A stretch of 64,000 nt of DNA, from contig BROI01000022.1 in assembly GCA_027923505.1 (NCBI GenBank), positions 248,001-312,000 of the forward strand. The letters run 5' to 3'. This document shows positions 25,101-49,654 of the stretch, in pieces (position 1 is the first letter of the stretch; each line of letters opens with the position of its first letter). The position numbers were made by a program, and so were the translations under genes. The notes below the pieces were generated by a model. That model did not search any database, had not been told where the DNA came from, and saw nothing but the letters and a program-made list of their open reading frames with translations. This DNA is from Mayamaea pseudoterrestris. Its lineage: Eukaryota.

Positions 25101-25221
25101 TAATATTGACACTACTTTGGATGAGCTTGCTCATTCCAATGCAAAACCCAATCGGTTATTATCAGCCGCTGCTAAACAACTCTCTGTGGTGGCACAAAGT
25201 GGAGCATCAACACTATCATAA
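22137..25221 (+). CDS. ABC1/UbiB atypical protein kinase, plastid-targeted; exons 22137-23426, 23516-23546, 23624-23976, 24072-24190, 24276-25221
   Basis: LGPTAIKVGQ, LQDQVPPF, ASASIGQVY, VAVKVQRP, ELDY, EWVDG, spliced LHCDPHPGN, LDHG; four GT-AG introns keep the frame; signal peptide + GFRSF leader. Confidence 0.93.
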
Positions 25222-25478
25222 TATGCTGCAAGTTTTGTTTTTAAAAAATGGACGAGCTTAATCATCATGTCTGTACTTTGTAAGATAGGTTGCCAGAGCT
25301 ACTGACGGTACCTGTCATCTAGAATGCCAGATCAGGCTTGGTAAGATGTCAATTCTGCAGCATCCTTTTGTAGTGAGTCATCATTAGGGAGCCAAAGAAG
25401 GATCTCCATGACAATTGTAAATTTAAGCGGAATGCATCATGCTATACCTAGTCACACAACGTAAGGAACATGGGTAAG

Positions 25479-28400
25479 CATGGAAATGGTCTGCAGGCTG
25501 GGTGTGGCCAACACCCCAAATTATGGAATCATACCACTACAATGCCCCGTGCCCTGGCCACCCAACAACCCAATGAGTCAGGCAAAACATGTCCAGGGTG
25601 TGCCATTGACATGAGGATGGTCTGAAATGGTGCACAACAGACTGCCGAAAGGCCTACACCATGGAATGGTCTGCAGGCTGGGGGTGGCCAACACCCCAAA
25701 TTATGGAATCATACCACTACAATGCCCCGTGCCCTGGCCACCCAACAACCCAATGAGTCAGGCAAAACATGTCCAGGGTGTGCCATTGACATGAGGATGG
25801 TCTGAAATGGTGCAAAACGGACTGCCTGGAGGCCTACACCATGGAATGGTCTGCAGGCTGGGTGTGGCCAACACCCCAAATTATGGAATCATACCACTAC
25901 AATGCTCTGTGCCCTGGCCACCCAACAACCCAATGAGTCAGGCAAAAGATGTCCAGGGTGTGCCATTGTCATGAGGATGGTCTGAAATGGTGCAAAATGG
26001 ACTGCCTGGATGCCTACACCATGGGTACGGCCTCCACGGTGGGTATGGCCAACACCACAAGTTGCAGATTCTCCCCTGTCAAACGCCCCATGCCCTGACC
26101 ACCCAGATACCCAATGAGTCAGGCAAAACATGTCCAGGGTATGCCATTGACAGGTGAAGAAACTCAAATGGTGCAAAAAGGACTGCCTGGAGGCTGACAC
26201 CATGGGTACGGCCTCCACTGTGGGTATGGCCAACACCACAAGTTGCAGATTCTTCCCTGTCAAACGCCCCATGCCCTGGCCACCCAAAAACCCAATGAGT
26301 CAGGCAAAACATGTCCAGGGTATGCCATTGACAGGTGCAGAGTCTCAAATGGTGCAAAACGGACTGCCTGGAGGCTGACACCATGGGTACGGCCTCCACT
26401 GTGGGTATGGCCAACACCACAAGTTGTCGATTCTGACCTGTCAAACGCCCCATGCCCTGGCCACCCAAATACCCAATGTGTCAGGCAAAACATGTCCAGG
26501 GTATGCCATTGACAGGTGCAGAGTCTCAAATGGTGCAAAAAGGACTGCCTGGAGGCTGAAAACATGGGTACGGCCCTCCACTGTGGGTATGGCCAACACC
26601 ACAAGTTGTCGATTCTGACCTGTCAAACGCCCCATGCCCTGGCCACCCAAATATCCAATGAGTCAGGCAAAACTTGTCCAGGGTATGCCATTGACAGGTG
26701 CAGAGTCTCAAATGGTGCAAAAAGGACTGCCTGGAGGCTGACACCATGGGTACGGCCTCCACTGTGGGTATGGCCAACACCACAAGTTGCAGATTCTTCC
26801 CTGTCAAACGCTCATGCCCTGGCCACCCAAATACCCAATGAGTCAGGCAAAACATGTCCAGGGTATGCCATTGACAGGTGCAGAGTCTCAAATGGTGCAA
26901 AAAGGACTGCCGGGAGGCTGACACAATGGGTACGGCCTCCACTGTGGGTATGGCCAACACCACAAGTTGTCGATTCTTACCTGTCAAACGCCCCATGCCC
27001 TGGCCACCCAAATACCCAATAACGCAGGCCAAACGTGTCCAGGTTATGTCATTGACAGGTGCAGAGTCTCAAATGGTGCAAAAAGGACTGCCTGGAGGCT
27101 GACACCATGGGTACGGCCTCCACTGTGGGTATGGGCAACACCACAAGTTGCAGATTCTTCCCTGTCCAACGCCCCATGCCCTGGCCACCCAAATACCCAA
27201 TGAGTCAGGCAAAACATGTCCAGGGTATGCCATTGACAGGTGCAGAGTCTCAAATGGTGCAAAAAGGACTGCCTGGAGGCTGACACCATGGGTACGGCCT
27301 CCACTGTGGGTATGGCCAACACCACAAGTTGTCGATTCTGACCTGTCAAACGCCCCATGCCCTGGCCACCCAAATACCCAATGTGTCAGGCAAAACATGT
27401 CCAGGGTATGCCATTGACAGGTGCAGAGTCTCAAATGGTGCAAAAAGGACTGCCTGGAGGCTGAAAACATGGGTACGGCCTCCACTGTGGGTATGGCCAA
27501 CACCACAAGTTGTCGATTCTGACCTGTCAAACGCCCCATGCCCTGGCCACCCAAATACCCAATGAGTCAGGCAAAACTTGTCCAGGGTATGCCATTGACA
27601 GGTGCAGAGTCTCAAATGGTGCAAAAAGGACTGCCTGGAGGCTGACACCATGGGTACGGCCTCCACTGTGGGTATGGCCAACACCACAAGTTGCAGATTC
27701 TTCCCTGTCAAACGTCCCATGCCCTGGCCACCCAAATATCCCATGAGTCAGGCAAAACTTGTCCAGGGTATGCCATTGACAGGTGCATAGTCTCAAATGG
27801 TGCAAAAAGGACTGCCGGGAGGCTGACACAATGGGTACGGCCTCCACTGTGGGTATGGCCAACACCACAAGTTGTCGATTCTGACCTGTCAAACGCCCCA
27901 TGCCCTGGCCACCCAAATACCCAATAATGCAGGCCAAACATGTCCAGGGTATGCCATTGACAGGTGCAGAGTCTCAAATGGTGCAAAAAGGACTGCCTGG
28001 AGGCTGACACCATGGGTACGGCCTCCACAGTGGGTATGGCCAACACCACAAGTTGTCGATTCTGACCTGTCAAACGCCCCATGCCCTGGCCACCCAAATA
28101 CCCAATGAGTCAGGCAAAACATGTCCAGGGTATGCCATTGACAGGTGCAGAGTCTCAAATGGTGCAAAAAGGACTGCCTGGAGGCTGACACCATGGGTAC
28201 GGCCTCCACTGTGGGTATGGCCAACACCACAAGTTGCAGATTCTTCCCTGTCAAACGCCCCATGCCCTGGCCACCCAAATACCCAATGTGTCAGGCAAAA
28301 CATGTCCAGGGTATGCCATTGACAGGTGCAGAGTCTCAAATGGTGCAAAAAGGACTGCCTGGAGGCTGACACCATGGGTACGGCCTCCACGGTGGGTATG

Positions 28401-31400
28401 GCCAACACCACAAGTTGCAGATTCTTCCCTGTCAAACGCCCCATGCCCTGGCCACCCAAATATCCAATGAGTCAGGCCAAACATGTCCAGGGTATGCCAT
28501 TGACAGGTGCAGAGTCTCAAATGGTGCAAAAAGGACTGCCTGGAGGCTGACACCATGGGTACGGCCTCCACGGTGGGTATGGCCAACACCACAAGTTGTC
28601 GATTCTGACCTGTCAAACGCCCCATGCCCTGGCCACCCAAATACCCAATGAGTCAGGCCAAACATGTCCAGGGTATGCCATTGACAGGTGCAGAGTCTCA
28701 AATGGTGCAAAAAGGACTGCCTGGAGGCTGACACCATGGGTACGGCTTCCACGGTGGCCGTCCAACACCACAAGTTGTCGATTCTGACCTGTCAAACGCC
28801 CCATGCCCTGGCCACCCAAATACCCAATGAGTCAGGCCAAACATGTCCAGGGTATGGCATTGACAGGTGCAGAGTGCAAAAAGGACTGCCTGGAGGCTGA
28901 CACCATGGGTACGGCCTCCACGGTGGGTATGGCCAACACCACAAGTTGTCAATTCTGACCTGTCAAACGCCCCATGCCCTGGCCACCCAAATACCCGATG
29001 AGTCAGGCAAAACATGTCCAGGGTATGCCATTGACAGGTGCAGAGTCTCAAATGGTGCAAAAAGGACTGCCTGGAGGCTGACACCATGGGTACGGCCGTG
29101 GTCGTGCCTTTAACGGGTATGTGGGCCCAACACCACAAGTTGTCGATTCTGACCTGTCAAACGCCCCATGCCCTGGCCACCCAAATACCCAATGAGTCAG
29201 GCCAAACATGTCCAGGGTATGCCATTGACAGGTGCAGAGTCTCAAATGGTGCAAAAAGGACTGCCTGGAGGCTGAAAACATGGGTACGGCCTCCACGGTG
29301 GGTATGGCCAACACCACAAGTTGTCAATTCTGACCTGTCAAACGCCCCATGCCCTGGCCACCCAAATACCTGATGTGTCAGGCAAAACATGTCCAGGGTA
29401 TGCCATTGACAGGTGCAGAGTCTCAAATGGTGCAAAAAGGACTGTCTGGAGGCTGACACCATGGGTATGGCCTCCATGGTGGGTATGGCCAACACCACAA
29501 GTTGTCAATTCTGACCTGTCAAACGCCCCATGCCCTGGCCACCCAAATACCCAATGAGTCAGGCCAAACATGTCAAGGGTTAGTTATTGACAGGTGCAGA
29601 GTGCAAAAAGGACTGCCTGGAGGCTGACACCTTGGGTTCGGCCTCCACGGTGGGTATGGCCAACACCACAAGTTGTCAATTCTGACCTGTCAAACGCCCC
29701 ATGCCCTGGCCACCCAAATACCCGATGTGTCAGGCAAAACATGTCCAGGGTATGCCATTGACAGGTGCAGAGTCTCAAATGGTGCAAAAAGGACTGTCTG
29801 GAGGCTGACACCATGGGTATGGCCTCCACGGTGGGTATGGCCAACACCACAAGTTGTCAATTCTGACCTGTCAAACGCCCCATGCTCTGGCCACCCAAAT
29901 ACCCAATGAGCGGGTATGCCATTGACAGGTGCAGAGTCTCAAATGGTGCAAAAAGGACTGCCTGGAGGCTGACACCATGGGTATGGCCTCCACGGTGGGT
30001 ATGGCCAACACCACAAGTTGCAGATTCTGAACCTGTCAAACGCCCCATGCCCTGGCCACCCAAATACCCAATGAGTCAGGCCAAACATGTCCAGGGTATG
30101 CCATTGACAGGTGCAGAGTCTCAAATGGTGCAAAAAGGACTGCCTGGAGGCTGAAAACATGGGTACGGCCTCCACGGTGGGTATGGCCAACACCACAAGT
30201 TGTCAATTCTGACCTGTCAAACGCCCCATGCCCTGGCCACCCAAATACCCAGGCAAAACATGTCCAGGGTATGCCATTGACAGGTGCAGAGTCTCAAATG
30301 GTGCAAAAAGGACTGCCTGGAGGCTGACACCATGGGTAGGCGTCTGGATGGCCAACACCACAGGCAATTCTGACCTGTCAAACGCCCCATGCCCTGGCCA
30401 CCCAAATACCCAATGAGTCAGGCAAAACATGTCAGAGGGTATTTGCCATTGACAGGTTGCAGAGTCTCAAATGGTGCAAAAGGACTGTCTGGAGGCTGAC
30501 ACCATGGGTAAGGCCTCCATGGGTGGGTATGGCGCAACACCACGTTGGCTTCTTCCGGACCTGTCAAATGCCCCATGCCCTGGCCAACAAATACCCAATG
30601 AGGTCAGGCAAAACATGTCCAAGGAAGCCATTGACAGGTGCAGAGTCTCAAATGGTAAAGGACTGCTCTGGAGGCTGACACTATGGGGACGGTCCCTCCA
30701 CGGTGGGTATGGCCAACACCACAAGCTGTCGATTCTGACCTGTCAAACGCCCCATGCCCGGCCACCCAAATACCCAATGAGTCAGGCAAACATGTCCAGG
30801 GATGCCATTGACAGGTGCGTCTCAAATGGTGCAAAGGACTGCCTGAGGCTGACACTCATGGGTACGGCCTCCACGGTGGCATGGCCAACACAACATGTTG
30901 TCGATTCTGACCTGTCAAACGCCCCATGCCCTGGCCACCCAAATACCCAATGAGTCAGGCAAAACATTTCCAGGGTATGCCATTGACAGGTGCAGAGTCT
31001 CAAATGGTGCAAAAGGACTGCCTGGAGGCTGACACCATGGCATGGCAGGTGGCCAACACCACAAGTTGTCGATTCTGACCTGTCAAATGCCCCATGCCCT
31101 GGCCACCCAAATACCCAATGAGTCAGGCCAAACATGTCAAGGGTAAGCCATTGACAGGTGCAGAGTCTCAAATGGTGCGACTGCCTGGAGGCTGTGACTA
31201 CAAATGGCCTCCACGGTGGAAATGGCTAACACCACAATTTGTAGAACCTGTCAAACGCCCCATGCCCTGGCCACAAATACCCAATAATTCAGGCCAAACA
31301 TGTCCAGGTATGCCATTGACAGGCAGAGTCTCAACAAAAAGGACTGCCTGGAGCTGACACCATGGGTACGGCCTCCACGGGGTATGGCCAACACCACAAG

Positions 31401-33788
31401 TTCGCATGCCCTGGCCACCCAACACCTGATGAGTCAGGCAAAAACATGTCCATCGATGCCACTGACAGGTAAGTCTCCAAATGGTGCAAAAGGATGCCTG
31501 GAGGTGAAACGGCCTCCACGGTGGGTACATGGCCAACACCACAAGCTGTCGATTCTGACCTGTCAAACGCCCCATGCCCTGGCCCCCCAAATACCCAATG
31601 AGTCAGGCAATAACACGTCCAGGGTATGCCAATGACAGGTGCAGACAAATGGGGCAAAGGATCGGCCTAGGCTGACACACCATTGGTACGGGGCATCCAG
31701 GGGGGGGGTATGGCCAACACCACAAGTTGTCAATTCTGACCTGTCAAACGCCCCATGCCTTGGCGACCCAAATACCCAATGAGTCAACCCAAACATGTCA
31801 AGGGTATGCCTTTGACAGGTGCAGAGTCTCAAATGGTGCAAAAAGGACTGCCTGGAGGCTGACACCATGGGTACGGCCTCCACGGTGGGTATGGCCAACA
31901 CCACAAGCTGTCGATTCTTACCTGTCAAACGCCCCCATGCCCCTGACCACCCAAATACCCAATGAGTCAGGCCAACATGTCCAGGGTATGCCAGACAGGT
32001 GCAGAGTCTCAAATGGTGCAAAAAGGACTGCCTGGAGGCTGACACCATGGGTACGGCCTCCACGGTGGGTATGGCCAACACCACGCCAAATGTGATTCTG
32101 ACCTGTCAAACGCCCCATGCCCTGGCCACCCAAATACCCAATGAGTCAGGCTAAACATGTCCAGGGCTTCCACACACAGGTGCAGAGTCTCAAAATGGTG
32201 CAAAAAGGGACTGCCTGGAGGCTGACACCCATGGGACGCCCCCGGTATGGCCAAAACCACAAGTTGCCGACCTGACCTGTCAAATGCCCATCCTCACACA
32301 CCAAATACCCAATGAGTCAGGCAAAACATGTCCAGGGTATGCCATTGACAGGTGCAGAGTCTCAAATGGCAAAGGACTGCCTGGAGGCTGACACCATGGG
32401 CACGGGCCTCCACGGTGGAAATGGCCACCACAATTTGTAGATTCTGACCTGTCAAACGCCCCACATGCCCTGGCCACCCAAATACTCCACAATCAGGCCA
32501 AACATGTCCAGTGGGTATGCCATTGACAGGCAGAGTCTCAAATGGTGCAAAAGGACTGCCTAGGCTGACACCATGGGTACGGCCTCCACGGTGGGTATGG
32601 CCAACACCATGTTGTCGCCCGCCCTGGCCACCCAAAATACCTGATGAGAGTCAGGCAAAACATGTCCACTGTATGCCAGAGCTCAAATGGTGCAAAAGGA
32701 CTGCCTGAGGCTGACACACAATGCCTCCACGGTGGGTAACAGCCAACACCACAAAAATGATTCTGACCTGTCAAACGCCCCATGCCCTGGCCACCCAAAT
32801 ACCCAATGAGTCAGGACACAACACGTCCAGGGTATGCCATTGACAGGTGCAGAGTCTCAAATGGTGCAAAAAGGACTGCCTGGAGGCTGACACCATTGGT
32901 ACGGCCTCCAGGGTGGGTATGGCCAACACCACAAGTTGTCGATTCTGACCTGTCAAACGCCCCATGCCCTGGCCTGCCCAAATACCATAATGAGTCAGCC
33001 AAACATGTCGGGCGGGCATGCCATTGACAGGTGCAGACTCAAATGGTGCAAAGGACTGCCTGAGGCTGACACCATGGGTACGGTCTCCACGGTGGGTATG
33101 GCCAACACCATTAAGTTGTGACCGACTCGTCAACGCCCCCATGCCCTGACACCCAATACCCAATGAGTCAGGCCAACATGTCCAGGTAGCCATGGGAGTG
33201 CAGAGTCTCAAATGGTGAAACGGAGGCCGGGGGATGGCCACCACAAGTTGTCGATTCTGACCTGTCAAACGCCCCATGCCCTGGCCACAAATACCCAATG
33301 AGTCAGGCCAGCCATGTCCAGGTTGCCATTGACAGGTGCAGAGTCTCAAATGGTGCAAAAGGACTGCCTGGGAGGCTGACACCATGGGTACGCTCCAGGG
33401 TGGGTATGGCCAACACCACAAGTTGTCGATTCTGACCTGTCAAACGCACCATGCCCTGGCCACAAATACCAATGAGTCAGGCAAAACATGTCCAGGGTAT
33501 GCCATTGATACAGGTGCAGAGTCTCAATGGTGCAAAGGACTGTCTGGAGGCTGACACCAAGGGTACGGCACGGGTATGGCCACACCATGTTGTCACTTGC
33601 TGTCAACGACCCACATGCCCTGGCCACCAAATACCCAGAGTCAGGCAAAACATGTCCAGGGTATGCCATTGACAGGTAGAGTCTCAAAATGGTGCAAAAA
33701 GGACTGCCTGGAGGCTGACACCAAGGGTACGGCCTCCACGGTGGGTATGGCCAACACCACAAGTTGTTGATTCTGACCTGTCAAATGC
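25479..33788. repeat. Satellite 1: tandem array of ~46 x 181-bp monomers (first three are a 180-bp divergent subfamily)
   Basis: Unit CCATGGGTACGGCCTCCACTGTGGGTATGGCCAACACCACAAGTTGTCGATTCTGACCTGTCAAACGCCCCATGCCCTGGCCACCCAAATACCCAATGAGTCAGGCAAAACATGTCCAGGGTATGCCATTGACAGGTGCAGAGTCTCAAATGGTGCAAAAAGGACTGCCTGGAGGCTGACA repeated head-to-tail; noisy after ~30200. Confidence 0.99.
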
Positions 33789-34289
33789 TAATGTCTATTC
33801 CCCAAACTTATACAGTGATTTGCATGACCACCAAGTTCTTGATTGACCTTACCAAAAGCATAATGATAGGTGGAGATACTTCAAATGATAGGGATCACCA
33901 ATTCTGTGGGTGCTGCCCTCCATACGTGATACAGTCACACGGAATAAGCGTATCTACTCCTGTTTGCCAGAAACATGGAGTTGTCAACATTATGAAGTGC
34001 TATAAGTTCCTCATGTATACCTTGTCAAAAGGTGGCAATGGCTTAAAGACAATCACATCCATAGTTTGATTGGTTGGTTATAGGCATCTTGTTGTTTCTA
34101 TTTGGCCCATCTACTCACAGCTTTCCCAAAACTTAGGCTTGCCAGGTTTATTTTGGGTTTGTTGGCCTCATTGATACTTTGGCTGAAAGTGGCAATGTTT
34201 GTAATTGATGGGGATGCCCAGCGGACCTGGTGGTGTAGTGTGGCAACGTATGAGATACTCCAGCTATGTGGAAGCAAGCTTATAAATTC

Positions 34290-37200
34290 CCCAACAACTT
34301 GTTGGATTTGCATCAGTCCACCTTAAGGGACTTCTTGCCAGAACGCGATTTTGGAATACAAAGAACATTATGTTTCAAATTAAGGGGACTCAAAGGCTTG
34401 TCACCTTGGGTGTGGAAACCATCATTTTCCAGAATGATGGGGATGCCAGCGGTGCACCTTTTTGCACAGGGATCATCAGCGCTGCCTGCGCTGCCTGAAA
34501 TCCTTTCAATTCATGGGTCATGATGAGCCAATGCTTTGGTCAGTTGCACCCATTCCAGTCTCCAACACCACGTATGCCATGGTGAGACTCAGCTTGCAGA
34601 TCCAACAACTTGTTGGATCTGCTAGCAGTGCACCTCAAGTGGCATTTCTGACTGCCAGAATTGCCTGCCAATGGTCTGAAAAAATATCTATTGATAAAGG
34701 CTTGTCACCTGGTGCTACCACCATCATACGTGACCATTGGCCTCATGGTTGAATGTGGCAGCTGTGCACCATGTTGGCTATTGGGATTATCAGCGCGTGC
34801 CTTCAGAGGCCTCTGGGAAAACCCATTCATGTTGGTGACATGATGGGCCTATGATTTGGTCGGTTGCACCCATTTCAGACTCCAAACACGTGTGCCATGG
34901 TGAGACTCATCTTGAAGTTCAAACAACTTGTTGGATCTGCTAGTACCAGTGGCACTTCTTGACTGCAAGCAACGGCCTGCCAATTCTGGAATACAAAGAA
35001 CATTTTTCGGTTTGGCCAATCAAAGGCTCGGCTTGTCACCTTGGGGTGTGGAAACCTCTTTTGCCAGTCACCGTGCATTCCCAAGATAATGTCTGCGGCC
35101 AGTGGGTGCAGCGTATGGCTGCCTCAGCGCTGCCTTCTGAGCCCTGAAATCCTTTCCAATTCATGTTTGGTGTCATGATGGGCCAATGCTTTGGTCAGTT
35201 GCATCCATTTCAGTCTCCAACACCACGTATGCCATGGTGAGACTCAGCTTGCAAATTCAACAATTTGTTGGATCTGCTAGCAGTCCACCTCGAGTGGCAC
35301 TTCTGACTGCCAGAACGGCCTGCCAATTCTGGAATACAAAGAACATTATGTTTCAAATTCAAAAGGACTCAAAGGCTTGTCACCTTGGGGGTGGAAACCA
35401 TCCTTTTGCCAAGAAACACCGCACATTCAACCAATGGTTGAATGTGCCAGTGGTGCACCCTTTTTGGCTACAGGGATCATCAGCCATGCATTCTGAGCCC
35501 TGAAATCCTTTCCGATTCATGTTTGGTGTCATGATGGGCCAATGATTTGGTCAGTTGCACCCATTCCAGTCTCCACCACCACGTATGCCATGGTGAGACT
35601 CGGCTTGCAGATTCAACAACTTGTTGGATCTGCTAGCAGTGCACCTCAAGTGGCATTTCTGACTGCCAGAATTGCCTGCCAATTCTGGAATACAAAGAAC
35701 ATTATGTTTCAATTTGATTGGGACTCAAAGGCTTGTCACCTTGGGTGTGGAAACCATCATTTTGCCAAGAGACTCCGCACATTCAACCAATGGGGTGGTT
35801 GAATGTGCCAGCGGTGCACCTATTTTGGCTACAGGGATCATCAGCGCTGCCTTCTGAGCCCTGAAAACCTTTCCAATTCATGTTTGGTGTCATGATGGGC
35901 CAATGCTTTGGTCAGTTGCATCCATTTCAGTCTCCACCAACACGTATGCCATGGTGAGACCCAGCTTGCAGATCCAACAACTTGTTGGATCTGCTAGCAG
36001 TGCACCTCAAGTGGCACTTCTGACTGCCAAAACGGCCTGCCAATTCTGGAATACAAAGAACATTCTGTTTCAATTTGATTAGGACTCAAAGGCTTGTCAC
36101 CTTGGGTGTGGAAACCATCATTTTGCCATGAGACTCCACACATTCAACCAATGGTTGAATGTGCCAGCGATGCACATATTTTGGCTACAGGGATCATCAG
36201 CGCTGCCTTCTGAGCCCTGAAATCCTTTCCAATTCATGTTTGGTGTCATGATGGGCCAATGATTTGGTCAGTTGCACCCATTCCAGTCTCCAATACCACG
36301 TATGCCATGGTGATACATGGCTTGCAGATCCAAATATTTGTTGGATCTACTAGCAGTGCACCTCAAATGGCATTTCTGACTGCCAGAAATGCCTACCAAT
36401 TCTGAATACAAAGACATTCTGTTTATATTTGATTAGGAGTCAAAGGCTTGTCACCTTGGGTGTGGAAACCATCATTTTGCCACGAGACTCCGCGATTCAA
36501 CAAATGGTTGAATGTGCCAGTGGTGCACCCATTTTGGCTACAGGGATTATCAGCGCTGCCTTCTGAGCCCTGAATCCTTTCCAATTCATGTTTGGTGTCA
36601 TGATGAGCCAATGGTTCAGTCAGTTGCACTCATTGCAGTCTCTACCACCATGTGTGCCATGGTGAGACTCAGCTTGCAGATCCAACAACTTGTTGGATCT
36701 GCTAGCAGTGCACCTCAAGTGGCACTTCTGACTGCCAGAACGGCCTGCCAATTCTGGAATACAAAGAACATTATGTTTCAAATTCAAAAGGACTCAAAGG
36801 CTTGTCACCTTGGGTGTGGAAACCATCATTTGCCAAGAGATTCCGCACATTCAACCAATGGTTGAATGTGCCAGCGGTGCACCCATTTTGGTGACAGGGA
36901 TCATCAGCGCTGCCTTCTGAGCCCTGAAATCCTTTCCAATTCATGTTTGGTGTCATGATGGGCCAATGATTTGGTCAGTTGCACCCATTCCAGTCTCCAA
37001 TACCACGTATGCCATGGTGATACTCGGCTTGCAGATCCAAATATTTGTTGGATCTGCTAGCAGTGCACCTCAAGTGGCACTTCTGACTGCCAGAACGGTC
37101 TGCCAATTCTGGAATACAAAGAACATTATGTTTCAATTTGATTAGGGCTTAAAGGCTTGTCACCTTGGGTGTGGAAACCATCATTTTGCCATGAGACTCC

Positions 37201-39313
37201 GCGATTCAACAAATGGTTGAATGTGCCAGTGGTGCACCCATTTTGGCTACAGGGATTATCAGCGCTGCCTTCTGAGCCCTGAAACCTTTCCGATTCATGT
37301 TTTTGGTGTCTTGATGGGCCAATGATTTGGTCAGTTACACCCATTCCAGTCTCCAACACCACGTATGCCATGGTGAGACTCAGCTTGCAGATTCAACAAC
37401 TTGTTGGATCTGCTAGCAGTGCACCTCAAGTGGCACTTATGACTGCCAGAACAGCCTGCCAATTCTGGAACACAAAGAACATTATGTTTCAAATTCAAAA
37501 TGACTCAAAAGCTTGTCACCTTGGGTGTGGAAACCATCATTTTGCCATGAGACTCCACACATTCAACCAATGGTTGAATGTGCCAGCGATGCACATATTT
37601 TGGCTACAGGGATCATCAGCGCTGCCTTCTGAGCCCTGAATCCTTTCCAATTCATGTTTGGTGTCATGATGAGCCAATGGTTCAGTCAGTTGCACTCATT
37701 GCAGTCTCCACCATGATGTATGCCATGGTGATACTCGGCTTGCAGATCCAAATATTTGTTGGATCTGCTAGCAGTGCACCTCAAGTGGCACTTCTGACTG
37801 CGAGAACTGCCTGCCAATTCTGGAATACAAAGAACATTATGCTTCAAATTCAAAAGGACTCAAAGGCTTGTCACCTTGGGTGTGAAACCCATCCTTTTGC
37901 CATGAGAATCCGCACATTCAACCAATGGTTGAATGTGCCAGCGGTGCACCCTTTTTGGCTACAGGAATCATCAGCGCTGCCTTCTGAGCCCTGAAAACCT
38001 TTCTGATTCATTTTGTTGGTGTCATGATGGGCCAATAATTTGGTCAGTTGCACCCATTCCAGTCTCCACCACCACGTATGCCATGGTGAGACTCGGCTTG
38101 CAGATCCAAATATTTGTTGGATCTGCTAGCAGTGCACCTCAAGTGGCACTTATGACTGCCAGAACGGCCTGCCAATTCTGGAACACAAAGAACATTATGT
38201 TTCAAATTCAAAATGACTCAAAGGCTTGTCACCTTGGGTGTGGAAACCATCATTTGCCAAGAGGTTCCGCCAGCGGTGCACCCATTTTGGTGACAGGGAT
38301 CATCAGCGCTGCCTTCTGAGCCCTGAAATCCTTTCCAATTCATGTTTGGTGTCATGATGGGCCAATGATTTGGTCAGTTGCACCCATTCCAGTCTCCAAT
38401 ACCACGTATGCCAAGGTGATACTTGGCTTGCAGATCCAAATATTTGTTGGATCTGCTAGCAGTGCACCTCAAGTGGCACTTCTGACTGCGAGAACTGCCT
38501 GCCAATTCTGGAATACAAAGAACATTATGTTTCAATTTGATTAGGGCTCAAAGGCTTGTCACCTTGGGTGTGGAAACCATCATTTTGCCATGAGACTCCG
38601 CACATTCAACCAATGGTTGAATGTGCCAGCGGTGCACCCATTTTGGCTACAGGGATCATCAGCGCTGCCTTCTGAGCCCTGAAATCCTTTCCAATTCATG
38701 TTTGGTGTCATGATTGGCCAATGCTTTGGTCAGTTGCACCCATTCCAGTCTCCAACACCACGTATGCCATGGTGAGACTCGGCTTGCAGATTCAACAACT
38801 TGTTGGATCTGCTAGCAGTGCACCTCAAGTGGCACTTCTGACTGCCAGAACGGCCTGCCAATTCTGGAATACAAAGAAAATTATGTTTCAAAATAAAAAT
38901 GACTCAAAGGCTTGTCACCTTGGGTGTGGAAACCATCATTTGCCAAGAGACTCCGCACATTCAACCAATGGTTGAATGTGCCAGCGGTGCACCCTTTTTT
39001 GGCTGCAGGGATCATCAGCACTGCCTTCTGAGCCCTAAAAACCTTTCTGATTCATTTTTTTGGTGTCATGATGGGCCAATGCTTTGGTCAGTTGCACCCA
39101 TTCCAGTCTCCAACACCACGTATGCCATGGTGAGACTCAGCTTGCAGATCCAACAACTTGTTGGATCTGCTAGCAGTGCACCTCAAGTGGCACTTATGAC
39201 TGCCAGAACGGCCTGCTGATTCAGGAACACATAGAACATTATGTTTCATATTCAAAATGACTCAAAGGCTTGTCACCTTGGGTGTGAAACCCATCCTTTT
39301 GCCATGAGACTCC
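34290..39313. repeat. Satellite 2: tandem array of ~14 x ~356-bp monomers, each a diverged dimer with two 27-bp palindromes
   Basis: TCAT(G/T)TTT anchor at 35161, 35517, 35878, 36234, 36586, 36941, 37295, 37652, 38008, 38340, 38696, 39052; degenerate copies to the left. Confidence 0.98.
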
Positions 39314-39329
39314 TGACACGATGCAGTTC

Positions 39330-40691
39330 CAGTTCGTACGGCTGCAACGATTCCTCACCCTCTGTAGTCGGTTTCCAAGTGAGCGGGATGATCAGTCCTT
39401 TACCTTGGTTTATCCTACAGGGGTCTTATTCTACAAAACGCTAGTTGATTAAGCAGTTCTCTAGAAAGTGAGTTGATTTACGATCTGTCGAGAAAGAGTG
39501 ATTGATCAGATGGCTCTTTCAAGACCATTCACGATAGTGAATACTAATCTTGTTTAATCGTGCCTGCGGCTGGCACACATGCAATATTTCAATGACGTAG
39601 TTGTGAGTAGATGTCTTTTCTGGTACCGCAACGGAGGTTCGAGTACTATGCTCGTTCGCCCCCGGCGACGTCTAGGTTCGCGTCAAGCGACTGGACTAGA
39701 TCGTCATTGTGACAACGTCAGCGCCATTCATTTGCACTAGCCTTGCTAGAATCAAAGACCTGCGTGCCTTGCTTGCGACAACTTTCCTGCAAGCGAATTT
39801 TTGCGCGAAGCTTGGTTGCGTTAACTGTCAAAGCAGACTTGTCCATTGTAGAGCTGTCTCCATCGCCAGACGCATTGGATTCAAGTTCCTTGGAGTCAAA
39901 AGCCTCCTGCTCGCTGTCCATCTTGACCTTGGCTGGCTGCTTGCGGCTGCCTTTCTGTGGCATGCTTGTGCGCTTGAGAGACTTGCTGGCACTGTTACCA
40001 ATACTGGGATTGACAACGGAGTCACTGCCACAAGCTTGCTTGGGAATAGCACCAATGTCAACGGTGTTGGAAGCAGCGCTGGGAGCAGTCGTGCTCATAT
40101 CCAAACAAATCTTTGACGCATGCGGCTTGTACTTAAAATGATTGCTGGTGCTGACGGCTTCATTCGAAAGGTTTTCCTTGAGTGGAACAACTTGCAAAAT
40201 GACATGGAAGAGCCCATCTTTCTGCGGCAAAGCTGTTGACAAGGCATTCTGCGTGGTCCAGCTGTCGTACAAATCAATGAGTTCAAGGTCACCGTTCTTT
40301 CCAAGGAGATACACCTCGAAACCAAACTTGTTGATCAGAGTTGGCAGATTTTGCGGATCACCACCCGTCTTGGCGACGCGCCATCCGTGACTGACTTGGG
40401 TCCCATAATCATCCATCGTTTCAAGCGTCTCAAGGAGGATGGCGATGATGGTGCCGTCTTGGAGAATGGATCAAACAAGACTTTTGCGCAAGGTGTAGTG
40501 ATTGTCAATGACATTCTCTTGACTGCACTGATGATACTATCATTGCCGTCAATGACCTTCTTCATTCCCAGACAACTTGTGTTCAAGCTTGTCTTGTCGT
40601 TGCTTTTGTCCATGGAATGTCCAGTGGCTTGATGTTTTGCATGCGCTTCAGGCGTGAGGAACGCCAGCTTGGTCGTGACAACATCAGCCAT
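39330..40691 (-). pseudogene. Disrupted ORF of unknown family (gene or TE accessory gene relic) running into satellite 2
   Basis: ATG 40691 frame shifts near 40520 into the 39718-40416 frame (SAVK/ENVIDNHYTLRKSLV*SILQDGTIIAILLETLETMDDYG); TGA stops at 40473, 39720 and 39521 interrupt protein-like sequence. Confidence 0.55.
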
Positions 40692-43560
40692 GATGAAGGT
40701 GAATGCAGTAGTTTGATGAGGAGGATGTGATACAAGACGAGTGCAGGGAGTAGGCAAGGCATGTTGGCAAGTTCACTTTGCTGCAGGTCAGGTTTTTTGA
40801 AATGGTCGTTGCCTAGCCGCGAAAGCGAGGCTTGGCGCGGCGCGCGTGCAATGACGGTCACATTTATAAACCAACCAATCAAAACTCTACACATTGACTT
40901 CATGCCATTGATTAGCTAACTCTTGTAAGCCAGAAAATGAAAAAGTCACAACAAGACTCCAGCGTGGAATTGTTATGTATACAACCTATTTACGTGAATG
41001 TATAGATAGCACGATAATAAGCATCTTTGAAATGGGTACTTCCTATAATGTTACAAAGATCCAAATAGTGGGTAGCTAAAAGTTGCTGCGAACAACATCA
41101 TGGGAGCCAAGCACGTTCGCAGAAGAGCCACGCATCGACGTCTTCCACCTTGAATATGCACTGGCAAACAGCAGCGCTGCAGCATAGTGGAAAGCAAAAT
41201 CGATGAACGCCTTGTCCTTGGCAGCATGTGTCGACACCGTTGACATCTTGGATTGATGGGTTGGATGCATGCCTTGCTTTGACTCCCATTCACAAGGCCA
41301 GTGTTAATTTGGGAAGGCACGTTTTTGTTTGATGGCTCTTTGCGATTTGCCTCGTTTGCTACATCTCAAAATCAAGAGTGAATGGTGAGCGTATCATAAT
41401 GGCAATGATATACGCAAAGAGCTGGCATTTTTCCTCGACGGCGGCAATTTCCATGCAAAGCGACGTTTGCTCCCTTCTTGCCTTCACGACACTATTCTCC
41501 CTGCATTACACGCCATTCCAAGTTTGAAATCTTTGCACAATACCAGGACAAAATGAACCATTGGTTGATTCCCGACTTGACACTGCCCCCATTTCCAGCA
41601 CGATTTGCCCGCGTCTTGCTTTCAAAATGTTTGTCAAGCGTTTGCCGGAGCAAAGTTAGAAATGTGTCACGTGCACTTCACGCAGTCCCAAACACCGCTT
41701 TTCCTGCAAAACCAATCATTACCAGCAGGTGGTTTCCGCTGCATTGCGGTCATGCATGGAGAGCTTCTCTCTGCCGTACATAATCTGTTGACCATTACCT
41801 ATCGACCCCGATGCACTTACCGGTGTGACTATTGGAAAGAAGAATGTTTTGCTTTTGCTCTGGTGACCGTTTAAAGATGATGTTATTGAAGTGACCTTGA
41901 TTGTGGTTGAAGTAGCTCAACACTGTCGTCACTTAAAGAGCTCGATAGTCCAAGGAATCGTGTGCTACATTTTGAGTCAATAGATTTGCAAAGTTATCAT
42001 TGGCTTGAAGAGAACTACACATGCTCCGCTCCATTGCTACTCAAGCAGTTATAGAGCAAACATAGAGTTAAACGATTTGGTTTGGATGATCATGGTCGGG
42101 CCTTGTTTGACATGGGCATCAAGGACTCCATTGACAATTCAATTTGAATGACGCAGGCCGGCCGGGCCATTTTCAATCCAACTGACAAGCGCCAAAGTGT
42201 TACCATCCTAAAACAAGTCATTGACCACCAGGAGTCTTTTACCGTTTGCGGGAAAAGCCACCTTGATTTACAAGCGACGACACAAAAACTTGACTTATAA
42301 GACTACAACTACAATGGGCGATATCATGCCTCGAGCTGTCGACACATTGCCAGCCGAACAGGGGGCACTTGCGTCGCGACGAAACGACAGGCGCAGGCCA
42401 CACCAGTCCAATAATCTGCTCCTGCTGCCACCAAGAGCAAGGTCCAATTCCACCTCGATGAGGAGGAAGGTAATTAATTTGTTTGTATTCGCGATATTCG
42501 AGCATCCAAGCGTAAAGGAGATCATTGAATCCAACACACTTGAAGCGCAATTATCTTGCTGACAATCAAGCTACTGTACTGAGCATCTAGGACAATTTAA
42601 TACAACCAAGGAACCAGCAGAGGTTTGCCGGCTAACGATTTAAAAAGTAGGTACTGGCAGTGCAAGTAATTTTGTTGTTAAATATTCATTTATTTGTGTA
42701 TTGACGTACCACATTTACCCAGCACAAGCATGTTATTTGTAGAAGTCGGCCAATGCGCATCTTGAACACGATCTGTATTTCAAAGGCCCATCAACTCATT
42801 TTTTATTGAAGCATTTACTGAAAGCCAAGACATTGTACTGATCAGGATCGTAAAGTACAATCTCCCACGATTCGCAGACGACAATCGCCTGCAACTTTCC
42901 GCAACTTAATCGCAGCAAGCTGTGGCGCTTCTTCCATCTCTGCATCTTTTATATTGTCCAAAGTCCAGATTGCAATCGCCTGTATGGCGTGGCGCATTAA
43001 CGCCAATGACCAGCGGCATCCTCTGTGCATCGCACCAATCACCAACCAATACGTTGCAAATTTTATTGCCTGCACCCAAAATTGAATGGCACAACAAAGT
43101 CAATGCTCCAAGGCACTGTGAGACAGTTCGTGAACGGCCAAATGCAACAGTACGTTGCGCAATCCACCCAATTATTGTGCGGTGCAAAGCATTGCGAAAA
43201 CACGTGGGCCGGCTCAGCGAATAGTTCATCCAGTTTCATCAAGTGAAAATAAGAGGCGTATTTGAAAACACCCAAAGATGCACTGTCTTGTTTGTCCCAT
43301 CCATAACATGTACATGCCTTTTACATATTATAGACAAGATGCTAGTCAGCTGTAAAGTAATGTGCAAATGTTGATTGCAAGAACAAAACGAATCTTATGA
43401 AATGCCGACAAAACAGCTGGGCGTCGTTTGACTTTTTGGTTTTCATGTCGCTGTGAGCCACCCAAAGATGCGCGCATTCCAAAATGAAGGCGAACAGAAC
43501 ACATCCCTCCTCAAAATTCATCGGCCACTACTATCACTCTCCCGATCACTCTGGTACAAA

Positions 43561-45282
43561 ATGTTCCTGCATCGTCCCCTCCTATCGCTACGAACAGCAG
43601 CAGCAAGTCGCTCCTCGCTATTGTCAAAATGTCGCCCTGCCTCGTCATCATCACCGCACCTTGCCACCACATTCTTTTTGCCGGATCCATCCGACGAAAA
43701 TGCCCATCGCCACCACCAGCAACTCACCAAGATTGTCGCCACCATTGGACCAACCTCGGAGCAGGCGGAACCAATGTTGCAGGTTGTATCGGCAGGCATG
43801 ACGGTGATGCGACTCAACTTTTCGCACGCGACGGTGGAGGAAGTGGAGTTGCGGTGCGCCAATCTGCAAGCGGCGCAGCAAGCAGTTGGTGTAGACAATA
43901 ACATGCGCGCAATATTACTTGATACCAAGGTGAATATATGAAATTGAGGATATTGCGTGAAATATGATTGTCACTACTTTGCTCACTCTTGAATTCTTGT
44001 ACAGGGACCCGAGATTCGCACCGGAAAGCTCGCCAACGATCACAGCGGACACGAAACCATGACACTCACGGCTGGCAATACTATAACGCTGCATACCAGT
44101 CAAGACATTCGCGATGCTGGAAGCACTGAGAGTGATTTATTCATTGACTATCCTGGATTAGCAAAGTGCCTCAAACCATCCATGAAGGTACTTTTGGATG
44201 ATGGTGCCATTCTATTGAATGTCCAATCCACCAATATTGAGCAAGGAACTGTCACTTGCACCATTCAAAACACTGGCGACTTGAGGTCACGGGCCGGCAT
44301 CAATCTACCACTCGCTGACATTAGTGACTTGCCTGCCATGTCGGCCAAGGACAAGGCTGACATTATGTATGGCATGACCAAGGACATTGACTTTGTCGCG
44401 GCCAGCTTTGTCCAAAACGCCCAAGCCGTTCGTGACATTCGAGCGCACATTCAAGACTGCGCCAACCAGCTTGGCTGGACCAGCAATGAGCCTCTTCCGC
44501 TGATTGTCAGCAAGATTGAAACGGCCGGTGCGCTCACACAGTTTGACGAGATTCTGCAGGAATCGGATGCCATCATGGTCGCCCGCGGTGACTTGGGCGT
44601 GGAGATTCCACTGGCGCAGGTGACAAACGCACAAAAGGAAATGGTGGCTGCCTGCAACGCGTCGGGCGTTCCGGTGATTGTTGCGACGCAAATGCTGGAA
44701 AGCATGAGCAAGAATCCGCGACCAACGCGAGCCGAAGTGAGTGATGTCACGAATGCAGTCTATGATGGAGCCGACTGTGTCATGCTTTCTGGTGAGACAG
44801 CAAAGGGAAAGTATCCGTCGGAAACAATTACTTTCATGAATGAGATTATATTAAGTGCGGAGCGATATGCTGATTCCGGCGCGCTTGGACGACCAGCGAC
44901 GCACTCGTTTCTGGCGAGCCCCATGTCGCGCGACTCTGCCGTGGCGCGGGCGGCTGTGGCATCGTCGGAGGAGCGACCGGATGCGGCAGCCATTTTGGTG
45001 TTGACAAACAAACTGGATACTGGTCTGCCTAAACTGGTGTCATCGTTTCGGCCAAATGTGCCCATTTTGGCGTTTGTGTCGTCAGCCAAGCTAGGACGCC
45101 AGTTGCAGCTACACCGCGGCATTATTCCCATTGTTGGTCTAGATAATGTAACCAATGCGGAAAGGTTCAAGCAAGCTGTTGGCATGGCGTGCAGTATGGG
45201 CTACGTCAAAAGTGGGAACGAAGTCGTAGTTATCTCGGTGACCGACGACAAAGAAGCGACAATGAAGATTGTAACAGTCTAA
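43561..45282 (+). CDS. PK: Pyruvate kinase with mitochondrial-type presequence; intron 43930-44004
   Basis: TKIVATIGP, RLNFSH, spliced LDTK|GPEIRTG, SKIET, MVARGDLGVE, ATQMLESM, PTRAEVSDV, MLSGETAKG; Arg/Ser-rich acid-free N-terminus MFLHRPLLSLRTAAASRSS. Confidence 0.97.
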
Positions 45283-46805: not shown

Positions 46806-47942
46806 TTATTCTTCTACGTAATGCTCGTGCTGGTCTTCATGATCCTCGTGATGCCCCTCTTCTTCCTCATAAAATTCTTCGGGTTTTTCGTGATATTCAG
46901 TCTCATGCTCGCCGTAGTGTTCTTGTTCGTGCTCGTGTTCGTGTTCGTGCTCGTGCTCGTCCTCGTCCTCGTGCTCATGCTCGTGTGCGCCTTCGTGCGC
47001 ATGCTCGTCAAAATGCTGCTCCTGCTCGTGTCCGTACTCGTGTTCCTCGACATCCCCATGTTCGATTTGATCATGCTGACTTTCGTCAAACGTTTCTTCA
47101 TGCTGATGATCTCTCATATCGGTTTCCGCTTGGGCTTCATGTTCGTGTGTACCGTCATAGGCAACCTCCTCGACAGGAATGTCACCTTGCACTTCCTCTT
47201 CGATGCGCTGCTCTTGGATATGCTCCTCGTTAACGTTTGGAGTCTCTTCCGGAGTATCCTTGTCTCGCTCATCCGCGTTCTCGGCACCGAACGCATAACT
47301 CATAGGAACGGATCGATCCGGATAGACAATGTAATCGACAGCCTTATACTTTCCATTTTCATCCAAACTGTAAATTTCCAACGCCAAGGTTGCAACCTTG
47401 CCTTGATCCTTTTCATATTGCGCAAATCCCCGCGACCAGTGAAGCATGGGGGCAATCATGGGCGTTATAAAGGAGCGCCAAGGAATGCTTGCCTTTAATA
47501 CTTGACTGTTTGGAATGCGAATCGCCTTGATGGTAGCGCCGACGCCAGCAGCCGATCCCTGAGCCGCAATCAAGCGAGCCTGCTTGAAATCGGCTTGAAT
47601 TAACCAACCGGCCGACCAATGTGGATTGCTAGTTTCGGTGGGGTCATCAAAATACATGCCCACGGCAACCTTTTCCCCTTGCTGGCCGTAATATTGCGCA
47701 GCCTCTTTCATGAATCTTGCTCCATCTGGAGACGTCAGTATGGCTGCTTCCGCTGCACCCAAGGCTGACGTGATCTTGTTGGCAATCCTCGGATCTTTCG
47801 ACGTGGCAACAATGGCGATTAGATCGCCTTGGGATGCCGTTAAAATCGAGTCATGATACTCAAAGGATGGTCGATCAAAGATGCCAACGAAAAAGAAGAG
47901 GACAGCCAGTAGACCAACGATGATTGGAACCAAGGGACCCAT
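46806..47942 (-). CDS. Membrane-anchored GyrI-like domain protein (TEX264-like) with His/Glu-rich C-terminal tail
   Basis: N-terminal hydrophobic anchor, VGMYFDDP, VLKASIPWRSFITPMIAPMLHW, ALEIY, then ~150-aa E/H-rich disordered tail with (HE)n. Confidence 0.75.
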   Translation of the reverse strand: MGPLVPIIVGLLAVLFFFVGIFDRPSFEYHDSILTASQGDLIAIVATSKDPRIANKITSALGAAEAAILTSPDGARFMKEAAQYYGQQGEKVAVGMYFDDPTETSNPHWSAGWLIQADFKQARLIAAQGSAAGVGATIKAIRIPNSQVLKASIPWRSFITPMIAPMLHWSRGFAQYEKDQGKVATLALEIYSLDENGKYKAVDYIVYPDRSVPMSYAFGAENADERDKDTPEETPNVNEEHIQEQRIEEEVQGDIPVEEVAYDGTHEHEAQAETDMRDHQHEETFDESQHDQIEHGDVEEHEYGHEQEQHFDEHAHEGAHEHEHEDEDEHEHEHEHEHEQEHYGEHETEYHEKPEEFYEEEEGHHEDHEDQHEHYVEE

Positions 47943-48232: not shown

Positions 48233-49654
48233 TCATGCAGCTGACCGCGCAACTTCCTCTTCGGTTCCTCGTTTTGTTGACGACACATCGAAAGACTCTG
48301 GCCCAAAGATTGCTCGAAGACCTTCGTTGCTATTGAACATGAGACTATGATCATGTGGAACTCCCGGAACAATGCTTCGATGATAAGGAATTCCGAGCAA
48401 CTCCATCGACCTAACATAACGCTCATGACGCTCGAGTCGCGTTCGTCCCTGCATCATATCGGAGCACGTGGTTTCCAACCCATGCGAGTCGCACCACCCC
48501 GCGTCGTGTCCCGGAACGTTGCAAACATCGAGGCTTCCTGCAAGGTATACCATGTTTCGGCTTCGAAGTCGTTGCAGCAAATGGTCCGTGCCGAGTGTTT
48601 GTAACACTTTTGCGACATACGAAACAGTGTCGTTTCCAACGCCCATATACAAACCATGGCCCCAATCATTATATTCGGGGCATGTCTTGACAAAAGGTTG
48701 CATCCACTCGCCACCAATCCAGCGTAAAGGAGTCAAATACGCATAGGAGGACGGATTGGCAACGACTCCATGAAAGAGTGAATCATTCCAGGAAGAAGTC
48801 ATGAGCGCCCATCGCTGCACAAACTGACCACCAGAAGAATGGCCAACAATGGCCACTCTCTGAAGAGATGTATAATTGGATGTATTGACTGTTTGGATTA
48901 AAAGATCAATAGCTTGAAACGAGCTGAATGAGTCGCTCTGCAGCTCCAAAGGGTACATCGCTGCCTCTCCATAGCGCCATGCACCGTCTGCTTCATTACT
49001 CCAACGTATAGCAGTCCCATTATCAATAATTTCCAATTCATCATCGTCCATGTTTGGAAACCGTGGAGCCACAAGAAGAACATTTTCTGGATCAAAGTGG
49101 GACTGTTGCTTTATTGCCGCCGTGCTTGCACAGAAATAATCGTCGGCGTTTCTCCCTGCACGGTGAATGACAATCAGAATCATTTGTACGCGGGCAACAG
49201 CATCTGTTTGGTGCAATTTTCTCAAGTCTCCATGACTGGAATAGTAGACAAACTTGGCGTCTTCATTCTTGTCATCATTTCCAGCCGGCAGTCCATACAA
49301 AGCTTGTGCTTGACCTTGGCACAGCTTATATCGTGGCAACACTTGAACCAAGGGATCCATTATCAAAGTTTCCGCTAAACACAGGTAGTTTTCAATGCAT
49401 TGATAGCCATAGGCGCATCCAGTCCGTTCATCGTCGCGGCAGCATGTAGCATTGTAGGAACCGAGATCGTTCGGTATGCAAAAGGAGGTTGTCGTCGTCG
49501 CATCCGCGGCGCTGTCACCCGCCAAAGCCGCGCAGCAAGTATTTCCCGTCGGGCAAGAGCCTCCTCCATTTTCCACAGAACAGCTTTCAAACGAGATAGC
49601 TACTGGTAAGCTAACAATCAAGACAGCAAACAGCAACCAATGAAGCAGCTTCAT
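48233..49654 (-). CDS. Secreted alpha/beta hydrolase with N-terminal granulin-like Cys-rich module
   Basis: Signal peptide MKLLHWLLFAVLIVSLPVAIS; CPTGNTCC...CIP...ATCCRD...GCAYGYQC; nucleophile elbow VGHSSGGQF, VVANPSSY, GSLD, VPGVPHD. Confidence 0.82.
   Translation of the reverse strand: MKLLHWLLFAVLIVSLPVAISFESCSVENGGGSCPTGNTCCAALAGDSAADATTTTSFCIPNDLGSYNATCCRDDERTGCAYGYQCIENYLCLAETLIMDPLVQVLPRYKLCQGQAQALYGLPAGNDDKNEDAKFVYYSSHGDLRKLHQTDAVARVQMILIVIHRAGRNADDYFCASTAAIKQQSHFDPENVLLVAPRFPNMDDDELEIIDNGTAIRWSNEADGAWRYGEAAMYPLELQSDSFSSFQAIDLLIQTVNTSNYTSLQRVAIVGHSSGGQFVQRWALMTSSWNDSLFHGVVANPSSYAYLTPLRWIGGEWMQPFVKTCPEYNDWGHGLYMGVGNDTVSYVAKVLQTLGTDHLLQRLRSRNMVYLAGSLDVCNVPGHDAGWCDSHGLETTCSDMMQGRTRLERHERYVRSMELLGIPYHRSIVPGVPHDHSLMFNSNEGLRAIFGPESFDVSSTKRGTEEEVARSAA

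Follow-up and report, generated by a model that had tools for sequence, protein, structure and literature searches.

Satellite DNAs with dyad symmetries are well known, and conserved boxes within satellites are known as well, the CENP-B box being one example and a 19-bp box in Meloidogyne satellites reportedly another. Quasi-palindrome correction is a templated mutation of the Ripley type, and related studies reportedly deal with the homogenisation of inverted repeats. The maintenance of hairpins by template switching is already known, and one template-switch event can create perfect stems together with multibase compensatory changes (PMC8794818). The centromeres of the diatom Phaeodactylum tricornutum are low in GC and free of repeats (10.1101/096016), and the predicted centromeres of Fistulifera solaris lack highly repeated elements (10.1101/2021.11.10.468027). 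For Mayamaea pseudoterrestris, a genome of 30.6 Mb in 41 contigs with 19% repeats, chiefly Ty1-Copia, has been described, and the words satellite, tandem and centromere are absent from the main text of that paper (PMC9724779). Here, we analyse Satellite 2, a tandem array within a 64,000-nucleotide stretch of this genome (GCA_027923505.1, contig BROI01000022.1, positions 248,001 to 312,000 of the forward strand; hereafter "the window", with positions counted from its first letter). The Satellite 2 monomer carries two related 27-bp palindromes, A and B, whose arms differ from each other in a mirrored fashion. Our best explanation, to which we give an even chance of being right, is that the right arm of each palindrome and its 3′ flank constitute a conserved box, and that template switching renews the left arm as a shadow copy of the right.

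The host is a raphid diatom, and as a tandem satellite Satellite 2 is non-coding and ordinary. Tandem Repeats Finder (TRF) reports a single array of 13.0 copies with a period of 356 bp (87% matches, score 6695). Cutting at a conserved anchor yields 14 monomers, which measure 304, 331 and 344 bp at the decayed left end and then 354–361 bp, with one of 330 bp; nine of the 14 anchor intervals fall within 354–361 bp. The array itself had been recognised in the initial annotation, which let it begin at 35161, a start that has to be moved to the left, as TRF reports the array from 34745 and decayed copies extend to about 34285. Its head-to-tail arrangement, its many copies in the genome and its non-coding sequence are those of satellite DNA: there is no open reading frame (ORF) of at least 150 amino acids (aa) within 34–39.3 kb, and Rfam gave no match at gathering score over 25000–44000. 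The GC content of the array is 46–48%.

The consensus of palindrome A is GCAGATCCAACAA-C-TTGTTGGATCTGC and that of palindrome B is GCACATTCAACCA-A-TGGTTGAATGTGC, both with perfect 13-bp arms flanking a single nucleotide. The two example copies quoted in the initial annotation (36676–36702 for A, 36845–36871 for B) were recovered with exactly this architecture, and the spacing, previously put at about 169 and 187 bp, is 170 bp from A to B and 186 bp from B to A in the consensus. The arms differ, as had been stated, at three of 13 positions (consensus positions 4, 7 and 12), each time with a complementary change in the partner arm. By our own arithmetic, the chance that three right-arm differences are met by complementary bases at the mirror positions is about 1/286 × 1/27 = 1.3e-4. 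Perfect inverted repeats with arms of at least 10 and loops of at most 8 nucleotides number 54 in the window, nested ones included, versus 0–4 in each of 20 shuffles. Predicted single-stranded DNA folds reach -16.2 kcal/mol for A and -12.6 kcal/mol for B, values that none of 200 shuffles attained, and with z-scores of -6 to -8 both palindromes rank as stably folding dyads.

The claim that each monomer has both palindromes in perfect form did not survive the inspection of individual copies. Among the 15 recognisable A copies, four are perfect, three carry the left-arm change C7T alone, one carries C7T together with other changes, five are of the variant ATA-T and two are otherwise decayed; among the 11 B copies that keep the right arm, five are perfect, one has a 5-nt insertion in the centre, two have the change G1A, two have a chimeric left arm and one is decayed. 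In addition, B is deleted from the monomer at 38223–38552 and is lost or decayed in two old monomers. Allowing up to six errors, no further copy of either palindrome was found in the window outside 34285–39170, and a degenerate 27-nt palindrome pattern had no match in the metagenome contigs of JGI, which suggests that the organism is not represented among them. The monomer holds other dyads as well. At 36369–36393 lies a third one, GGCATTTCTG-ACTGC-CAGAAATGCC, which is perfect in one copy only and imperfect in the consensus. At 36699–36713, and likewise in each copy, a perfect 10-bp palindrome, CTGCTAGCAG, overlaps the end of the right arm of A and is followed by GTGCAC, which brings the dyads packed into the conserved box to three; this 10-mer is without a counterpart in the B block.

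If symmetry rather than sequence were maintained in Satellite 2, as the initial annotation proposed, covariation should be visible among the copies. We counted it over 24 cores (14 A and 10 B) and a 13-pair stem, omitting the most decayed copies at 34285 and 34732. Three stem pairs change on both sides, and all three of them separate A from B; mirrored variants are absent within the aligned A copies and equally absent within the aligned B copies, and five stem pairs depart from the consensus only through unpaired cells. A covariation score as high as the observed one occurred in one of 500 shuffles, a value that related rows can yield without any structure and that here reflects one split. Because the three mirrored pairs all lie on the single A/B split, they are not three independent tests, and from the sequences they could represent one or two events. 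Compensatory evolution of a structure would appear as double changes on several independent branches and as two arms that are both less variable than their surroundings. In Satellite 2 the double changes are confined to one split, and it is the right arms only that are conserved. Inside the array the proposed check thus fails. What stands of the claim are the three mirrored differences between A and B; what does not is the maintenance of symmetry within A and within B, where one-sided variants have been amplified instead. The alternative offered alongside it, that the arms are homogenised by strand-switching, is in better agreement with the one-sided, left-biased variants and with the single split.

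This left bias is seen in the distribution of variation over 11 well-kept monomers. Variation amounts to 0.7% in the right arm of A (one variant cell among 143) and to 0.5% in the 20 nt of its 3′ flank (one among 220), compared with 9.1% in the left arm of A and 5.3% over the rest of the monomer. For B, the left arm varies at 14.7% (deletion counted) and the right arm at 7.7%, the latter contributed wholly by the monomer that lost B; the 3′ flank of B varies at 5.9%. Over all 15 A copies, 24 left-arm cells differ from the consensus versus two right-arm cells, and over 11 B copies the right arm differs at a single cell. When distinct site changes are counted and two replaced arms are dropped, 11 fall on the left and three on the right (two-sided binomial probability about 0.06, our own count and arithmetic). 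The left arms in the array show no sign of purifying selection.

Several of the one-sided variants have been amplified, ATA-T to five copies, C7T to four and the chimeric B left arm to two; in its five monomers ATA-T is linked to a change in the flank. The left arm of the two chimeric B copies matches, but for one missing base, the T7 version of A's left arm exactly, and their right arm and left flank are of B type. Such a left arm is either a relic of an ancestral left arm or the product of a short conversion between the blocks. Both the chimeric B copies and the C7T copies of A show the state of the other palindrome in the left arm and their own state in the right arm, as we would expect if changes arise in the right arm and are taken up by the left arm afterwards. 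By our own count, three of five left-arm changes at the differing sites match the other palindrome, which is not significant, the counts being too small.

The initial annotation described Satellite 2 as a hidden dimer, and common ancestry of the two palindrome-bearing blocks is supported. A local alignment of the 178-nt halves starts at GAGACTC, takes in the palindrome and ends with GTGCACC; of its 51 columns, 47 pair two bases and 38 of these are identical, and its score was reached by none of 500 dinucleotide shuffles under each of three scoring schemes (z 3.7–6.8). A profile built from 11 A halves matches all 10 B halves with nhmmer (E 1.6e-7 to 2e-5) over 56–100 nt, which adds TGCCATG on the left and, less confidently, a rightward stretch with one gap. 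The flanks TGCCA[T/A]G..GAGACTC and AGC[A/G]GTGCACC accordingly align between the halves, as had been noted. Outside the block, the left flanks (184–445 of 500 shuffles scoring as high) and the right flanks (10–50 of 500) show no significant likeness, and TRF reports no half period of about 178 bp for the array. Satellite 2 thus resembles dimeric satellites in having two homologous landmarks per 356-bp unit at about half-period spacing, and departs from them in that its halves do not align over most of their length (a 51-nt core in the pairwise alignment, 56–100 nt by profile). Of the hidden dimer there remains a homologous block of about 56–100 of the 178 nt, the remainder of each half not being significantly alignable. 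The sequences indicate that a block of about 60–100 nt was duplicated within the monomer long ago; a full dimer is possible.

The two blocks differ in one further respect. Their homology continues across the right arm and the right flank without a gap (TAGCAGTGCACC versus CAGCGGTGCACC), but is interrupted by a 4-nt indel precisely where the left arm ends on its outer side (GAGACTC-AGCTT-GCAG in A versus GAGACTC-C-GCAC in B). The extra GCTT, which is missing from the B half and from many genomic copies, pairs in the predicted fold with (T)AGC in the right flank, so that the dyad becomes GCT-T-[13]...[13]-T-AGC with 17-nt arms and one T.T, 16 of 18 positions being paired. GCTT is left out in 30% (X1), 19% (X2), 66% (X4) and 15% (X6) of the summed contig depth in four public runs, and on these grounds we call the outer edge of the left arm of A an indel hot spot. 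An insert complementary to the sequence beyond the opposite arm is a trace that template switching would be expected to leave; the footprint is modest and, as a feature read from the sequence, suggestive only.

To view the family beyond the array, contigs of these four runs were aligned onto the last monomer and its unique flank; the summed contig depth obtained in this way should not be read as a copy number, and it may under-count short contigs from the variable parts. Satellite 2 is present in all four runs, with 1870 (X1), 671 (X2), 122 (X4) and 42 (X6) contigs matching one monomer and a summed depth hundreds of times that of the single-copy flank. In X1, the depth is 753,010 in the B bin and 399,342 in its right flank, 643,419 in the A bin and 547,295 in its right flank, 43,110–67,524 between the palindrome bins and 159 in single-copy DNA. 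The peaks run rightward of the palindromes (bins 38960–39049 and 39140–39199), and loose contig ends mark diverged subfamilies that have the cores in common. Family-wide, no other part is kept as well as the palindromes and the sequence on their right side.

These observations can be brought together as follows. The right arm and the 3′ flank would be the conserved part of each block and the left arm a reverse-complement shadow of the right arm, recopied from it occasionally by short-range template switching during replication, that is, by quasi-palindrome correction. When the right arms of the two blocks diverged at three positions, recopying would have made the left arms follow, and what looks like three compensations would then take only one or two events, without DNA structure being under selection. 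Between recopying events the left arm would decay freely, and imperfect variants would spread by ordinary satellite amplification. The conservation of the right arm and flank might be due to a sequence-specific protein site or to biased conversion. The switching, its polarity and the reason for the conservation of the box are what we infer here, from sequence facts that are themselves observed. Template switching would account for the perfect arms in both paralogues, for the mirroring on a single split, for variants that are one-sided and mostly in the left arm, and for the indel hot spot on the outer side of that arm.

Several points weigh against this explanation. The sample is one array of 14 related monomers with few independent events and a marginal asymmetry between left and right, and the proposed switch event is deduced from two paralogous cores. 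The change C7T results in a T.G pair, a wobble that is the textbook intermediate when a stem is under selection. The footprint at the left edge amounts to just three extra pairs past a mismatch, the form lacking GCTT also gains one pair, and for the polarity of the indel the B half and the four runs are the only outgroups. The depth peaks at both palindrome bins, where the cores are best kept across diverged subfamilies, would also fit selection on the palindromes. No variant internal to a palindrome is among the 40 of 95 variant rows listed, and such variants may be among the remaining rows.

A rival reading is that the symmetry is itself under selection, for a cruciform or hairpin or for the binding of a homodimeric protein about once per nucleosome-sized interval, possibly in a satellite-based centromere, and that the mirrored differences are true compensatory evolution. 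We regard it as possible, if on balance doubtful. Both cores do hold perfect 13-bp arms despite their differences, their predicted hairpins are more stable than those of any shuffle, the depth in all four runs peaks at the two palindrome bins while diverged subfamilies share the cores, the 170/186-bp spacing is close to a nucleosome repeat, and dyad symmetries are reported to be common in centromeric satellites (PMC5889037). Even the variants speak partly for it, as C7T, being a wobble pair, retains a predicted -12.7 kcal/mol on the plus strand and ATA-T retains a 10-bp stem. The same array, however, contains no mirrored variant within A or within B, its left arms (9.1% and 14.7%) are no better kept than the rest of the monomer (5.3%), and imperfect forms have been amplified, one monomer doing without B and two having a B that folds at only -5.5 kcal/mol. 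Moreover, conservation is asymmetric about the dyad and takes in the 3′ flank beyond the right arm. The centromeric part of this reading faces the additional difficulty that the centromeres of the model diatom are low in GC and without repeats (10.1101/096016), compared with the GC content of Satellite 2 given above. Diatom centromeres of that kind are marked by many 100-bp windows of at most 32% GC and by an absence of repeats; here, as judged on 2-kb windows over both satellites of the locus, GC is 46–55% and the DNA is repetitive. The low-GC, repeat-free centromeres of other diatoms may, by our analysis, leave room for a different arrangement in M. pseudoterrestris. The boldest form of the proposal, in which satellite-based chromosome landmarks, possibly centromeres, would be marked by a superfamily-wide palindromic box kept symmetric by a cruciform or homodimer about once per nucleosome, strikes us as decidedly improbable. 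If it were true, the A/B pair would be a natural example of compensatory evolution of DNA rather than RNA structure.

At the other end, the right arm and 3′ flank alone might be a sequence-specific protein site, a conserved box, with the palindromic left arm as a by-product that has no function. Variation in the monomer is indeed lowest over the 35 nt that span the right arm of A and its adjoining flank, the 11 good monomers show no change in either right arm apart from one G>A and one deletion, and the depth peaks run rightwards from the palindromes; conserved boxes are also known from otherwise diverged satellites, reportedly including the Meloidogyne box mentioned above. On its own this idea leaves the mirroring of the left arms unexplained, and the 3′ flank of B is not especially conserved. 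It would need a template-switch step and would then refine our preferred explanation rather than exclude it; as a complete account, we think it unlikely. That the mirrored pattern is a coincidence, or that the palindromes arose independently from unrelated sequence, is barely credible: beyond the small sample nothing favours it, and it is opposed by the low chance of three mirrored complementary differences, by flanks that are homologous on either side (all 10 B halves matched, E ≤ 2e-5) and by the near absence of long inverted repeats from shuffled windows.

The features of the array are collected in the table below.

Table. Position and state of the features of Satellite 2 in the window (positions of the 64,000-nucleotide stretch; A and B denote the two palindromes; folding energies are predicted)
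Feature	Position	Strand	Evidence or remark
Satellite 2 array, 356-bp period, 13.0 copies	34745..39313	+	TRF; monomer alignment and consensus
Decayed leftward copies, monomers of 304 and 331 bp	34285..34744	+	Anchor spacing, direct repeat families, alignment
Homologous block, A version (example): TGCCATGGTGAGACTC-AGCTT-palindrome A-TAGCAGTGCACC	36655..36714	+	Local alignment; nhmmer
Homologous block, B version (example): TGCCAAGAGATTC-C-palindrome B-CAGCGGTGCACC	36831..36883	+	Local alignment; nhmmer
Most conserved monomer stretch (example): A right arm and 22 nt of 3′ flank, consensus 248-282	36690..36724	+	Variation among 11 monomers; depth peak, 4 runs
GCTT at outer edge of A left arm; prolongs dyad onto right flank	39140..39143	+	Fold; contig depth
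A, decayed: left arm replaced, 1 right-arm change	34285..34311	.	7/13 paired
A, perfect 13/1/13	34596..34622	.	
A, 3 left-arm changes, intact right arm	34914..34940	.	10/13 paired
A, 2 left-arm changes and centre change, intact right arm	35251..35277	.	
A, left-arm C7T (T opposite G)	35607..35633	.	
A, perfect	35968..35994	.	
A, ATA-T and one right-arm G>A	36324..36350	.	
A, perfect (example in initial annotation)	36676..36702	.	DNA hairpin -16.2 kcal/mol, z -8.2
A, ATA-T: 10-bp arms, 7-nt loop	37031..37057	.	-12.9 kcal/mol
A, C7T	37387..37413	.	+ strand -12.7, - strand -10.4 kcal/mol
A, ATA-T	37742..37768	.	
A, ATA-T	38100..38126	.	
A, ATA-T	38430..38456	.	
A, C7T	38786..38812	.	
A, perfect	39144..39170	.	
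B, decayed: left arm replaced, 1 right-arm change	34732..34758	.	5/13 paired
B, perfect	35421..35447	.	
B, 5-nt centre insertion: 13-bp arms, 6-nt loop	35777..35808	.	
B, outermost left base G>A	36138..36164	.	
B, left arm as A (T7) left arm minus one base, B-type right arm	36492..36517	.	Sister copy hairpin only -5.5 kcal/mol
B, perfect (example in initial annotation)	36845..36871	.	-12.6 kcal/mol, z -6.0
B, chimeric left arm as at 36492	37201..37226	.	
B, outermost left base G>A	37557..37583	.	
B, perfect	37912..37938	.	
Deletion junction, whole B removed from monomer 38223-38552	38268..38271	.	Alignment gap, sequence
B, perfect	38600..38626	.	
B, perfect	38955..38981	.	

On its left, Satellite 2 adjoins an unrelated 181/362-bp satellite (Satellite 1, 25544–33785), which has a period of 181 bp, a 362-bp higher-order form, about 33 regular copies followed by decayed ones and a GC content of 53–55%; jointly the two satellites make up a 13.8-kb repeat block between genes. 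Satellite 1 was considered as the ancestral half-unit of Satellite 2 and rejected, as Smith–Waterman scores as high were obtained from 19 of 200 shuffles in forward and 79 of 200 in reverse orientation, and nhmmer E-values were at least 0.18 in both directions; there is merely a weak 19–20-nt likeness between the two, at the palindrome. The right end at 39313 abuts a 401-bp element (39314–39714) that is itself repeated in the genome. It starts with TG, ends with CA and has neither an ORF nor a target-site duplication. Relative to the adjacent single-copy DNA, its contig depth is raised about 76-fold in X1 and 53-fold in X2. The element is 99% identical in the four runs and, in X4, forms part of a contig of 4.7 kb; it may be either a solo long terminal repeat or an organelle-derived insert.

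The window is gene-dense with long open frames, one of which encodes pyruvate kinase. Its product matches a protein named from M. pseudoterrestris at 100% identity, and the hits that follow come from other diatoms. Open frames of 475–821 aa at 3520–5865, 49819–52284, 48233–49747 and 16200–17627 have no Pfam match at E ≤ 0.001. Smaller tandem repeats include a 51-bp repeat at 3110–3219 (2.2 copies), whose unit holds a long palindrome with perfect 15-bp arms around AAA in one copy (3116–3148), a 42-bp repeat at 13108–13624 (12 copies, 90% matches) with a 254-bp higher-order period (2 copies, 97%), and short 6-bp and 24-bp repeats at 46927–47008 within overlapping long open frames.

Our literature search found no paper devoted to diatom satellite DNA, no paper printing the palindrome sequences of Satellite 2 and, at the level of titles and listings, no report of template-switch maintenance in satellite monomers. 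Because no diatom satellite paper was found and the main text of the genome paper is silent on the subject, a catalogue of the Satellite 2 family with the locations of its arrays would be new for diatoms, and it could bear on how centromeres are built in non-model species of the group.

Compared with the diatom centromeres described for P. tricornutum and F. solaris, the locus belongs to the same group of organisms and is likewise a gene-poor stretch between genes; theirs, however, are short, low in GC and without highly repeated elements (10.1101/096016; 10.1101/2021.11.10.468027), whereas here a block of two satellites has 46–54% GC. With the centromeric satellites from which a non-B-form DNA model was derived (Kasinathan and Henikoff, 2018, PMC5889037), Satellite 2 shares monomeric inverted repeats that are predicted to form stable hairpins or cruciforms. 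Unlike the dyads of that survey, which are shorter than 10 bp and lie at known centromeres, its arms measure 13 bp (17 with one mismatch) and its locus is not known to be centromeric; the strings "compensatory" and "covari" do not occur in the available text of that paper. As in satellites with conserved boxes, a short stretch is kept over diverged subfamilies while the rest of the monomer drifts, as judged from depth peaks, loose contig ends and variation; unlike those boxes, the conserved stretch of Satellite 2 overlaps a palindrome and is a candidate site only. Dimeric or higher-order satellites built of two diverged subunits share with it a monomer in which two related blocks lie about half a period apart (170/186 bp in Satellite 2), and differ in that here only about 56–100 of 178 nt align, no half period is reported by TRF and the outer flanks are not significantly similar.

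Mirrored differences between arms are usually taken as proof of a selected structure. With two paralogous palindromes and amplified one-sided variants in one array, Satellite 2 offers a compact case in which selected symmetry can be set against symmetry-making mutation. In quasi-palindrome correction (Monttinen and Löytynoja, 2022, PMC8794818), reverse-complement copying from arm to arm perfects the arms and introduces several apparently compensatory changes at once, and bases can be gained or lost at the switch points; in Satellite 2, the three mirrored differences all fall on one split, and one arm has a 4-nt indel at its edge. Whereas the process is known from microbial reporters, RNA genes, miRNAs and promoters, the sequences in which we propose it here are the monomers of a satellite.

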